Shown here: piece after piece, positions 5,024 through 38,100 of the stretch
Position numbering within the stretch: position 1 is the first letter of the stretch
Layout of the letters: each line of letters starts with the position of its first letter
From: Leucoraja erinacea
Taxonomy: Eukaryota
DNA: 64,000 nucleotides
NCBI RefSeq assembly: GCF_028641065.1
Contig: NW_026576619.1
Coordinates: 372,001 to 436,000, forward strand
Direction of reading: 5' to 3'
Notes under the pieces: generated by a model
The model's input: the letters and a program-made list of their open reading frames with translations, nothing else
What the model was told of the DNA's origin: nothing
The model's database searches: none
Made by a program: the position numbers and the translations under genes

Positions 5024-5051
5024 GACGTTTCGGGTTAAGACCCTTCTTCAG
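5024..5051 (-). ncRNA. Minimal hammerhead motif within the pLTR-derived element at 4930-5051
   Basis: Minus strand CTGAAGA A GGGT CTTA ACCC GAAAC GTC. Confidence 0.6.
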
Positions 5052-8537: not shown

Positions 8538-8855
8538 GTAGACACAAGATCTGGAGAAACTCAGCGGGTGAGGCAGCATCTATGGAGAGAAGGAATAAGC
8601 AACTTTTCGGGCCGAGACCCTGCTTCAGACTGATGTCGAGGAGGGGGGGGGGGGGGGGGAGAGAGAGAGAGAAAGGAAGAGGCAGACAGTAGACTTCCTT
8701 TCTATCCCGCCCCCCGACATCAGTCTGAAGAAGGGTCTCGACCCAAAACGTTGCCTGTTCCTTCTCTCCTTAGATGCTGCCTCACCCGCTGAGTTTCTCC
8801 AGCATTTTGTGTCTACATTTGATTTTTCCAGCATCTGCAGTTCTTCCTTAAACAT
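8538..8855. mobile_element. Palindromic Penelope pLTR-derived element
   Basis: ~100-bp inverted arms around a purine-rich spacer; degenerate hammerhead core at 8725-8752. Confidence 0.82.
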
Positions 8856-32502: not shown

Positions 32503-34867
32503 AATATAGTCTATGTAATAATTTGAATTGAATTAAATGATGTCTTGCATTAATAGAACAGTTATGTGTATTCATCAAATACTTTTCCCATCTATCCTTC
32601 GAGATCTTTATCATTAGCTCTTGTTCCCAATCTTCCCTTAATGCTTCTGTTGAGGGTGATTCTCTATTTAATATATTATTATAAAAGTATGATATTAATT
32701 TTTGTGAATCAGCCTTAATATTCATTGCTTCTTCTAAAGGATCTAAAAATATAGTTTGAAATCTATGTGTATATTTCTTCATAAAGTCACATACCTGTAT
32801 ATATTTAAAATATTGATTATCCTTCAATTTAAATTTTAATTTTAATTGTTGAAATGATAACAGTTTGCCCACTTCATACATATCCCCTACTTTCCTAATC
32901 CCCAGTCTATCCCATTGTTGATATGTGTTGTCGATGAGAGAAGGTTTGAATGCGGGGTTGTTCAATAGTGGGGTTAGTACTGATAAATTATTTAATTTCA
33001 AGGATACTTTTATTTGTTTCCAAATTCTTATTATATTGTGAATAATTGGGTTCTTCTTATATATTATACTATTCAATTTTATCGGTGAGAGCAGGATCGT
33101 TCCTATATCGTGCGGATAGCACTCCTCTTTCTCCATTCTTATCCACTCCAACTGCTGAGTGGAACTATCCAGCCAGTATATTATGTTCTTAATATGTACT
33201 GCCCAGTAGTAATATATAAAGTTAGGTAATGATAAACCCCCAACTTCTTTAGATTTGCACAAATGCTTTCGTTGAATTCTATGTGTTCTGTAGTCCCATA
33301 TAAAATTAGTGATAGTGGAATCTAATTTTTTGAAAAAATATTTTGGAATATATATTGGGATCGCTTGAAACAAATATATTAATTGTGGTAAGAAAGTCAT
33401 TTTTATAGCGTTAATTCTACCTATCAATGAGAGTGGAAGCGTTTTCCAAAATTTAATCGTATCATTCAGTTTATTTAATAGTGGTATAAAATTGGCACTA
33501 AATAATGATTTGTGTTTTCTCGTAATTTGAATACCCAGGTACTTGAATTTTTCTGTTGCAATTTTGAAGGGGAATTTTAGTAAGTGTCTCAAATCCTGTG
33601 ATTTTAAAGACATAATTTCGCTTTTATTCCAATTTATTCTATATCCTGAAAAAGAGCCGAATTCCTCAATTAGTGTTAATAAGGTGGGTATACTCGTTTG
33701 TATATTAGTAATATATAAAAGGATACCATCAGCGTATAATTAAATTTTATTCTTTGAGTCCTTGCTGTTATATCCGTGAATATTCGGGTGATTTCTAATC
33801 CTTTCGGCCAGCGGTTCTATCATAAGGGCAAATAGCAATGGTGATAAGGCACACCCTTGCCTATTACCCCTTGATAAGTAAAATTTTGGAGATAGCGTAT
33901 TGTTAGTTAATATTCTTGCCGTAGGTCTATCATAAAGTAGTTTAATCCATCTAATAAAATTATCTCCCATATTAAATTTTCGGAGTACCTTGTATAAATA
34001 CTGCCATTCTACTTGATCAAATGCCTTCTCTGCATCCAACGTGACCACTGAGATATCTTCACGAGGTTGAATAAATTTTATCCAAACGTCTCTCCCAGAT
34101 GCGATAAATGTTTGTTTCAAAACGCTAATATAACACACTCATTTGTTGGATGTACAAAGTTGAATAAATTTTGGAGTGATATATTTGATATATTTACAAA
34201 GATTTTCAAGTCAAGAATAGAACCCAAAACGGAATGGATTATATTTGGAATAATAGGAGAAGATACCAATTTAAATAAAGATCAAAAGGTTTTTTTTAAT
34301 TATGGGTTAATAATTGGAAAGAAATTGATACTTAAATTTTGGAAAAATACAACCACACCAACTGTTAAAATGTGGATCAGGAATATGATGGACATAGCAC
34401 GCCTTGAAGAAATGAGACTCTGACTAATAGATAAATATGACCAATTCTTAAGGAGTTGGTCTCCTTTCATCGACTTTTTGGAATCATGTGATGCAGCGGT
34501 ACCGTAAAGATTGCTGATTTCAGTTCATGACGCGGATAGAGCTACATCTCCGAATACAGATTTGAAAAATTATCTTTTAAGGGGCCTTCTCTTCTATTTC
34601 TACTTTCCACTTTCTCTCTTCCTTTTTTTATTTTTTATATACACACTTCACGTTTTTCTACTCTCTACCATCTATTTTTCCACTTTTTCCCCTTTCTATT
34701 GTTTTCTTTTTCTTGTCCTGCTTACTTCCTTCTTATAACATAAAACTAGAGGTTGTACATAGAATGGATTACGGTATTACATAGTTGGCACCTAAAATTA
34801 GGTGCCACTGTACTGTTTTGTGCTGTATTAACTTCTAATAAAATAAAAAAAAAAAAAAAAAAAATAA
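32503..34867. mobile_element. 5'-truncated, 5'-inverted L1-clade LINE (ORF2 RT inverted 32503-34060; Cys-rich C-terminus, 3' UTR and poly(A) forward 34061-34867)
   Basis: LDAEKAFD, RQGCALSPLLF, YADG, FKYLGI and LIGRINAIKM on minus; CDKC..H..C on plus; AATAAA + poly(A); 15-bp TSD AAAATGTCAAAGCCT at 32488-32502 and 34868-34882. Confidence 0.95.
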
Positions 34868-35040
34868 AAAATGTCAAAGCCTTTCCTCTCATTACAACAA
34901 AAATCATTGCTCCTGAATTATAGAAATGTAAGGCACAGGAAGGCCCTAAATTTAGGGCACAGTCAGGCCATGTGACAACATACTCATCCAGGTACTTTTA
35001 AATATGTTCGAGATTTCTGCAGCCAGCATTGACAATGAGA

Positions 35041-35134
35041 AGGTACACAAAATTGCTGGAGAAACTCAGCGGGTGCAGCAGCATCTATGTAGCGAAGAAA
35101 ATAGGCGACGTTTCGGGCCGAAACCCTTCTTCAG
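35041..35134 (-). mobile_element. 94-bp Penelope pLTR-derived insertion with intact minimal hammerhead core
   Basis: 13-bp TSD ATTGACAATGAGA (35028-35040, 35135-35147). Minus strand reads CTGAAGA A GGGT TTCG GCCC GAAAC GTC. Confidence 0.85.
35107..35134 (-). ncRNA. Minimal type I hammerhead ribozyme motif (Penelope type)
   Basis: CUGANGA box, 4-bp stem II with UUCG loop, GAAA box, palindromic ACGU in place of stem III, GUC cleavage triplet. Confidence 0.65.
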
Positions 35135-38100
35135 ATTGACAATGAGATCTGTATTCTCATTCACCTCCGAGTAAAACAAATCTCTTCTACCCTTTCATCC
35201 TTCTACCAGTTAGCTTAAATCATGCTCCATCTGTACCATGAGAAATAGGAATTCATCTTTTCAATTAGTTTATTTATATATTGCAATTTATATTTTAGCC
35301 TTCTCTTTTCCAAAGAAAACACTGAGAATCCAGAATAAAAGGAGAAGCTACTGTAAATGCTGAGGTCAGGCAGCATCTGTGGAAAGAGAAATAAAGTTAA
35401 TGTTTCAGTTTTGAGACACGAGGAAAGAAAGAAAATGTGTTCAGTTTTGGTTACAGAGGAGAATGAGGTATGGATAGGACAAAGGGAATTTCTTTGATAA
35501 GGCAAGACCAAGTGGGTTAATGTTGCCATTAGTGTCAGATTATGCTGCTTCTATGTTACGTATTGCCAGCACTAGAATGTGATACCAGCTCAGACTGTAC
35601 TTATGGAGTGGAAAAATTGAACCAAAATCACAGATGGTGTCTAGTAGAAAATAGCCAGTGCATGTGGCAAAATATTGCATCAGAAGGCTCTCAGTTATCA
35701 GTAAGATCTTCACCCAAAACTCAATTTCATGGCCATTTCTCCATGTTTTTTTAATGCAAATGTCTCTACTTCTAACTCAGAAGCATGAATTTAATCTCAA
35801 ATTCACCCAAGCAAGATCACAGCTCGGTTCAAATCCTGCTGTATTCCGTACCAAATTCTTCAATGTTTGGTGACTCGCTCTTACATTCTGTCTGCATCAG
35901 AACTGGTTATTTTTACTAGTCACCCATCTGTGATTTTGGCTTATTTTTCTCTCTCTCCATTAGTACATGCACAACAATCCTGAATTGTCAGCACATAACG
36001 TAGACAAATCAGCATAATTTATCTCCAACTACCACACCAACCCCTATGGTCTGCGACAGATTTCCTTTTCTGCTGTTATTGGCCTCCCATCTTCTCCGAG
36101 CCTGAAACAAACTTATTTTCTCTCTTTCCAATTTCTAATAGTCTTGGATTTGAAATAATAACTGTTCCTTTTTCCCCATAGATGCTGCATGTCCTGCTGG
36201 CTGTTTCCAGTATTTCCTTCAGATTTCCAGCATTTGTAATTTCTATTGATCTACTGAGCATATCTAAAATCTCCTCATTACTAACCTTATGCAGTCCAGT
36301 CCAGTCTTTAGATTTTAGATATGCTCAGTATATTATTCCTATGTCATCTTGTAATTTGACATGTGCAATACTCTACCCATGCTTTCATACATCTCCAAGA
36401 AGATGCCTTGATAAATCTGGTTCTCCACAGATTATTTAATGGTTTCTGACGGTGGCAGAGAATTGAATGGTGCTGGAAAAAGGCAATGATATAAATCTGC
36501 GGTACTACAGTACTTTCATAAGTTCCAATTTATCATAACTAGCATAGAAAATAAGCATACAAGAAAAGACAACATTTGCAAAACTGAAATGTATCTTGAA
36601 CTCGATTGCCATTTATACAATAGTATTTTAATACTTCTCCTACAGGTGATATAAATATGAACATCTACAGTTATGGTCCAAACACAAACCTCCAGTGACT
36701 GGAGGAAAATTGAACAATTGAAACACACAAGCCCAGTTCATGACAATCCATGTGCAAAGGTCCAGCTAGCATGCAATAATGTGCCTTGTATTGTTTGACA
36801 AGTTTAGTCAGCCGCTTATTCCAAAATGTAACCCCAGCTCCTAGGTTGTTTCCTCCACTCAGCTCTATCAACATGAAAACCATCCTATTTCTGTCTCTGC
36901 ATTGCAGAAAGATCTGTGCACCAGGCACAGTCCCCGTCTATTTCCCACAAACTTATTCAAGCCAATTCCAACAAGACACAACCTCAATTCCAAATTGTGC
37001 AAGAACATCGTGCTCAGAACATAAACACGAAAATGTTCCAAAAAACACTGAAGCATAATGGCAGACAAGTAGAATTGTCTTGTATATTACAATACATTGG
37101 CACGAACAAATAAGACTTGTGGGAGCACAGTGGTACATTCACACAGAAGGATTGACACTCCAAATTTAAGAATCCTTAATTCCATCAAAATATTGAGAAT
37201 CTATCACCAACGGTTTTACAATGACAGTTCTTTCTAACTCAGTGCAGTGTTGAAGTGAAAAATGCCTCAATAACAAAAAATGGTTATTTTAAAATCACAA
37301 TGTACTCTAAATCTATTAGCTGGTAGTAGTGAAATAATTACACAATCAATAACCCTTGAATTGTATGCATGTTCCCATAGCTGAATACTTAAAAGTATAG
37401 AAAGGTTACGGTAGAGAATCTTGTATTTTTTACATTCCCCTGATATCTTCTTTTTATCAATCTATCCTCTTAACCTCTTTTCCTGGATTTGGGGAGTTAT
37501 GAAATGGATTTCAAGGGGTTTCCACCTACAGATTATGAGAGAGACAACTCAAGAGATGAGATGCAAGAACTCAAGATCGGAGAAGTAAACTAAGTCAGCT
37601 TCACATCAGCCACAATAACACTGAATGGTGTATCAAATTAGAGAGACTGAATTGAAACCTTCTCTGATTGTACAGGGGTTAGAGATTATCTTTTCTCTTT
37701 CTCATCAACCTTGCTCTTACTTGGATGGGTTTTTATTTCAACTTCCTGTTCACTTTTTTTTCTGTTCAAGAGGTGAGAAAATGGAATTTTCGAAAAGATT
37801 AGTATTTTAAAACAGATTTTTGTTTAAAATAAAACAGATAAGTACAAATATTATAAAATTCTCGTAGACATTCCATACCACATGTATGTATTAATGAGAC
37901 TCTTTCCTGAGGTTTATCATAAAAATATGGACGTTTTCCCTGTGTCGGCTAGAGGATTGACATGGGGCTCAATTCCAGTTTCTGCCAACACTAATGGCAT
38001 GAATACATTTGCCCTGGATCAATATACAGAGGCAAGATATTTTTGACTTACTGGAAGTGGGGTATTTTCTGAGAGTAAGCAGATAGCTTGTGTTCAACCT

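Follow-up and report, generated by a model that had tools for sequence, protein, structure and literature searches.

In endonuclease-bearing (EN+) Penelope-like elements, a C-X2-5-CxxC linker is described as common to the Neptune and Nematis types (PMC8557442). Circles were proposed as the template for copies longer than one unit in a model from 2014 (PMC4209133), and an internal promoter made up of an Inr and an RGACGTGY element is described for Penelope of D. virilis (PMC2377424). For an element of Anolis, the tail has been tied to two internal start sites of the reverse transcriptase (RT), protein-assisted folding of the ribozyme has been reported, and cleavage by the ribozyme is described as dispensable in vitro for this element, PAc (PMC11167929). 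Among the titles and abstracts searched, none dealt with the family considered here or described the hammerhead as a boundary for 5' ends; subscription papers, Repbase and supplements (e.g., the alignment figures of PMC4209133) may hold such descriptions. Here, a short insert in the genome of Leucoraja erinacea was analyzed together with its relatives. Taken by itself, the insert is an unremarkable remnant of a known class, a typical member of the short Penelope copies, and its parent type is already known. The new addition is that all 16 near-full-length copies that reach the hammerhead core pass through it, whereas most copies stop at its edge. This insertion contrast serves as a readout for the origin of Penelope pLTRs and partial tandems and for the role of the hammerhead.

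The window, that is, the whole stretch of 64,000 nucleotides that was analyzed, contains ATTGACAATGAGA at both 35028-35040 and 35135-35147, the two being separated by 94 bp (35041..35134, minus strand). As a control, a 13-bp repeat brackets 83 of 20,000 random 94-bp intervals of the window. Contigs of organisms C and D (one each) join 35027 to 35135, with 150 letters on either side, and skip 107 bp, corresponding to the insert and one copy of the target site duplication (TSD), while contigs of organism B enter the insert from both flanks. The 13-bp TSD claimed in the first-pass annotation is therefore real, with a single copy at the empty site in two related organisms, and in the empty-site comparison that it proposed, organism B carries the insert and organisms C and D lack it; a second sample of organism A gave no coverage of the site. 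Since the insert is absent from C and D, insertion took place later than the split from them. Such an absence, together with the retention of all six CpGs (6/6), agrees with the earlier view of a young copy; the insertion is real and fairly recent. At the 3' junction of the element (TSD copy 35028..35040), the first two minus-strand bases, TC, are the element's own continuation, and at the 5' junction (35135..35147) a 1-nt microhomology (T) is observed. Read on the minus strand, the insert begins CTGAAGA-A-GGGT-TTCG-GCCC-GAAAC-GTC, as had been noted; the claimed start exactly at CUGAAGA nevertheless carries an uncertainty of 1 nt, as the final T of the TSD is identical to the T that the element itself has upstream. 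The opposite end (35041..35047, minus) lies at an internal tail site of the element, the first of two preferred 3' sites at position ~94, and the optional tail of 35 nt, which extends to ~130, is absent.

The insert is a pLTR/5'UTR piece of a Penelope-like element of ~3,982 bp, which begins at the hammerhead core and ends at the first tail site, in agreement with the earlier assignment to a Penelope pLTR. It is 93% identical to L133:6469-6559, a segment located between the end of a GIY-YIG ORF and the start of the next ORF, and thus matches the pLTR of a ~4-kb unit with RT and GIY-YIG endonuclease. An internal 34-mer has 31,119 exact matches in the 2.19-Gb genome. Upstream of the core, long copies carry a pyrimidine-rich 3'UTR, then the GIY-YIG endonuclease, a C-X4-C-X2-C linker and the RT. 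L133 is a partial tandem with a period of 3,982 bp, in the order ORF end, 3'UTR, TCAGT, hammerhead, tail and ATG, the ATG being 164 nt after the core; like the 16 partial tandems found among the near-full-length copies, it shows the arrangement that gives a pLTR. The RT of L133 matches PF00078 with E 5.8e-07 (29.9 bits, above the cut-off of 29.6), and the 1,127-aa frame of L147 matches PF00078 (E 3.4e-4) and PF01541 (E 0.012), both below the curated cut-offs. A CX2-5CxxC linker is present ahead of GIY-YIG (CGRRRCNTC in P0001). A PDB sequence search with the element protein gave 0 matches. Judged from its sequence, the parent is an autonomous EN+ Penelope-like element of ~4 kb, with RT, GIY-YIG and a Neptune-type linker. 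Its predicted architecture is of the Neptune/Nematis type, the linker being common to both (PMC8557442); membership of the Neptune clade is putative.

Further related sequences surround the insert. Six additional related cores lie within the window, and a sister family, which differs in the sequence upstream of its core, has 12,888 matches genome-wide. Sister-family pLTR pieces are found at 5025, 6937, 19300 and 47613; the core edge is the starting point of two of them, and inverted partners accompany two. Two sister-family cores at 8602-8628 (minus) and 8725-8751 (plus) face apart, with 97 bp between them and a C-rich upstream stretch at each. At 35340-35415 (minus), 200 bp from the insert, a degenerate fragment represents a third pLTR family, which is older. 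Two other features were observed nearby. At 34600-34870, a T/C-rich repeat is followed by an A run (34841-34872), with high repeat depth in all four DNA runs, and is probably another retroelement end. At 36250-36332, an 83-bp hairpin with 23-bp arms gives weak matches to miRNA families (Rfam).

The minimal type I hammerhead recognized in the first-pass annotation can be followed box by box in the primary sequence, with the layout described in PMC4209133. The core box CUGAAGA (C3-A9) lies at 35128..35134, followed by an extra unpaired A and a putative stem II, GGGU/GCCC with a UUCG loop (35115..35127), and then by GAAAC-GUC, the second core box, with the self-complementary ACGU of the palindromic stem III region (35107..35114), all on the minus strand. 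The predicted cut falls between 35107 and 35106. In the sister family, stem II is GGGU/ACCC with a CUCG loop, a one-sided change from U-G to U-A. A hammerhead descriptor gave 129 matches in 797 kb, a DNA set enriched for the family by selection, compared with 0-1 in shuffles. Helix I comprises 2 bp in the full element; in the window copy a U-G wobble is followed by an A/C mismatch, and the helix is cut to one wobble pair because the TSD supplies the upstream bases. The computational checks of the fold were less favorable. The covariance-type search suggested in the earlier annotation did not recover the motif: the Rfam scan yielded 7 matches, all weak (E values up to 5), and none of them to a hammerhead. 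Folding prediction gave no hammerhead fold (z -0.95), with the core buried in other pairings in monomer and dimer, a stem II pair probability of 0.0 and a dimer in hammerhead geometry at -13.3 vs -32.8 kcal/mol. Protein-assisted folding may be compatible with this unfavorable prediction. A second cut at an NUC ahead of AGU was also considered and rejected, as the helix pairing fails by eye.

The ends of the copies were then tallied. From the first 100 listed matches of the 34-mer, 96 were used and 5 near-duplicates removed, leaving 91 copies. The 5' ends are not selected by the 34-mer, because it lies downstream of the predicted cut. Loci L001-L030, whose ends are selected by the query, were left out of the tallies, and one core-offset histogram was discarded, as its long class is inflated by loci that had been picked for their ORF. 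Relative to the first C of the core, 51 of the 91 5' ends fall at -5..+8, while 21 copies are longer and 19 are shorter. The stop rate per base is 0.074 at -5..+8, compared with 0.0016 at +9..+140 and 0.0033 beyond, and the boundary is 14 nt wide, not one base. Genome-wide, 11 upstream bases are kept in 8,360 of 25,688 core matches, and allowing for 2-4% divergence it can be estimated that ~53-61% of core copies end no more than 11 nt upstream. The sister family has its boundary at the same place (7 of 35 copies long, read by eye). At the other side, 3' ends gather at two sites 35 nt apart, near 94 in 50/91 copies and near 130 in 27/91, matching the pair of internal RT starts by which the tail of the Anolis element is defined (PMC11167929). 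TSDs of 8-15 bp were found in 32 of 154 short copies, and inverted partners in 25 of the 91 copies, the joints of which are often at near-palindromes around the core (by eye). Copy ends are thus non-random, with two 3' sites and more than half of the 5' ends in one 14-nt interval, and the random scatter named beforehand as a refutation was not found. The ribozyme cut itself was rejected as the source of the 5' ends, since the predicted cleavage site (-28) is the start of only 1/91 copies.

Longer copies behave differently. Forty matches to the part of the ORF between 250 and 500 nt from its start were followed towards the 5' end. Twenty-four of them break off ahead of the core, 9 within the 5'UTR and one exactly at the predicted cut. 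The other 16, which are mostly of a sister subfamily rather than of the window's own and include two matches that share one tandem (L367), extend as far as the core, and every one of them continues into the preceding unit with none stopping at -5..+8. Their preceding units break off at varying points, and the longest of these extensions amounts to nearly two units. The proportion stopping at the core, 0/16, can be compared with 6/14 for core-anchored copies of the same subfamily (p=0.005) and with 51/72 in the main tally (p=9e-8). The one near-full-length copy at the cut (L354/L377, C12 near 56.13 Mb) has a 5' end exactly equal to the predicted hammerhead cleavage product; as 1/40, such a start at the cut could be chance.

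The front 94 bases were probably written by the endonuclease and RT of the element itself, with run-off at the 5' end of a linear RNA. As part of the same explanation, the ribozyme would be a passenger in the short insert and would not define its ends. During the first step, RT probably starts internally, ~94 (or 130) bases into the linear RNA, and it would then run off the RNA 5' end just before the hammerhead core, giving the short inserts. The 5' boundary would correspond to the RNA 5' end, where transcription probably starts, at about UCAGU, from an internal promoter. Long copies would, in the simplest reading, arise from a second, continuous template, either a multimeric transcript or a circle whose ends were joined at the ribozyme cut; on such a template the 5' end of the linear RNA does not exist and RT would read through into the preceding unit. 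Instead of a circle, strand transfer or read-through of long tandems could play this part. A more specific form of this explanation, which we consider possible but tentative, has two RNA forms: a linear RNA that starts ~3 nt before the hammerhead and gives only 94/130-bp inserts, and a circle of ~4 kb that is copied by rolling circle. The circle would form through cleavage at the two pLTR hammerheads and be the source of the long and more-than-unit inserts. If true, it would provide genomic support for the 2014 circle model and a job for the ribozyme. The contrast also makes the idea of a circular template directly testable, since it predicts at which coordinates the RNA should start, the ribozyme should cut and the circle should be joined.

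Several observations bear on the putative RNA start. By eye, AAACGTYR lies 25-32 nt downstream of the A of TCAGT, and TCAGT with the downstream ACGT may resemble the Inr/DPE promoter of D. virilis (PMC2377424), a likeness only. A cap-derived extra G at AGTCTG was not seen: G precedes this motif in 873 of 2,742 cases (0.32, vs a background of 0.38). No near-full-length copy starts at AGU (0), a start that a linear template of unit length would give. ORF-start fragments extend past the boundary in ~4-5/18 cases, about as ordinary copies do (read by eye; a truncated reference gave an artefact pile at -8). RNA reads were taken from three runs of two studies, with 1-5% of each run covered; no RNA data set was listed as containing the window stretch. 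Between 68 and 94% of the placed reads continue into sequences that are unrelated, and coverage of the ORF start is minimal; the reads are mostly passenger transcription. In these portions of the three runs, no pile-up of molecule starts or ends was observed, and neither a circle joint nor a splice joint was found among the 15 of 117 joints examined.

A single template with a roadblock would be another source of the boundary. RT coming from the 3' pLTR would usually stall at the pyrimidine tract/CAG edge, at a bound protein, a 3' splice-site complex or a structure, and microhomology would join the product to the target. The pyrimidine tract and TCAG directly ahead of the core in all examined subfamilies are consistent with this, as are the intron of D. 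virilis that is described as ending at helix I (PMC4209133), the breadth of the boundary and the common microhomology, 2-5 nt at the 5' joint in 20 of the 32 TSD-bearing short copies. However, a polymerase roadblock should stop both kinds of copies, yet 0/16 long copies stop, which argues against it and in favor of two templates. Moreover, many short copies retain AG, CAG or TCAG and have no shared exon ahead of the core, which implies an unspliced template (a spliced one was rejected on these grounds), and no GT-AG joint into the core was present among the 15 of 117 joints. The roadblock is therefore regarded as unlikely.

Head-to-tail arrangements are also seen within the family. Among loci L243-L332, most of the 88 ORF-start fragments end at ORF +27..+180, head-to-tail ahead of the 5' end of another copy, suggesting that RT jumps back to the region immediately beyond its start sites, on their downstream side. 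Loci L295, L323, L283 and L281 likewise contain small arrays. L378:1976-4448 (C1 near 24.09 Mb; also L234) is a head-to-tail array of 14 units of 165-212 bp with 5'UTR and ORF start. Its units end near ORF +45; three of them begin at the edge of the core, nine begin 3-4 nt beyond the predicted cut and the others elsewhere, and the core is present in only 3/14 of them. It may be a retrozyme-like array or the result of repeated template jumps. Such jumps are common, often with joints at AGTCTG/CTGAAG, and they, with the several start points of the 14-unit array, would suit strong-stop synthesis with strand transfer, in which RT starts near the RNA 5' end, stops, and sometimes moves to the identical 3' pLTR, the short inserts being failed transfers. 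RT that comes to the 5' end for the second time should then fail as often as at the first, yet 16/16 copies pass, and we consider this route improbable.

The first-pass annotation had proposed independent movement of the unit, as a tiny retrozyme-like element, and this view was not upheld. A non-autonomous retrozyme- or SINE-like unit, with short genomic copies as the source of its transcripts and with mobilization in trans, would fit the abundance of short copies (more than half of the core-bearing copies), the putative internal promoter that each would carry, the one retrozyme-like tandem array (L234/L378) and a 2026 preprint that derives animal retrozymes from pLTRs (10.64898/2026.07.22.740005), but it is highly doubtful, as the cut is hardly ever a start, variant classes are common to short and long copies of the 91-copy set and so do not support a separate lineage, the variants of the window copy recur in long endonuclease-ORF copies (L004, L007, L010), this copy is single rather than tandem and has an incomplete helix I, same-strand pairs within 400 bp number 25 among the 372 cores in the examined DNA and are mostly unrelated neighbours, and the RNA downstream of the start sites that the Anolis protein is described as requiring is missing from short copies (PMC11167929).

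In comparison with known systems, metazoan non-LTR retrozymes, as described in PMC7229834 and 10.64898/2026.07.22.740005, are likewise short, non-coding and related to pLTRs, with a type I motif and a TSD longer than 4 bp. They are tandem repeats of 150-450 bp that are expressed as self-cut linear and circular monomers, whereas here a lone 94-bp piece has a minimal motif, with no sign of its own RNA in the portions (1-5%) of the three RNA runs. The metazoan pLTR hammerheads of PMC4209133 share CUGANGA, the extra nucleotide before stem II, the G-C closing pair, the palindromic stem III region and the occurrence mostly as single dispersed motifs; relative to them, the full element here would be limited, like that of D. 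virilis, to a stem II of 4 bp and a helix I of 2 bp, the latter reduced to one wobble pair in the window copy. PAc (Poseidon) of Anolis carolinensis resembles the present family in that two 3' sites define a tail and the ends are not set by cleavage, but its ORF starts in stem II, while here both 3' sites are in the 5'UTR ahead of the more distant ATG (PMC11167929). The EN+ elements with a Zn-finger linker (Neptune/Nematis; PMC8557442) also have a single ORF with RT, C-X4-C-X2-C plus GIY-YIG at the C-terminus, form partial tandems and carry TSDs of 8-15 bp; their optional 30-40 bp tail (35 nt here) and inverted 5'-truncated partner are both present. The stops described there are scattered, whereas here most fall within one 14-nt interval before the ribozyme.
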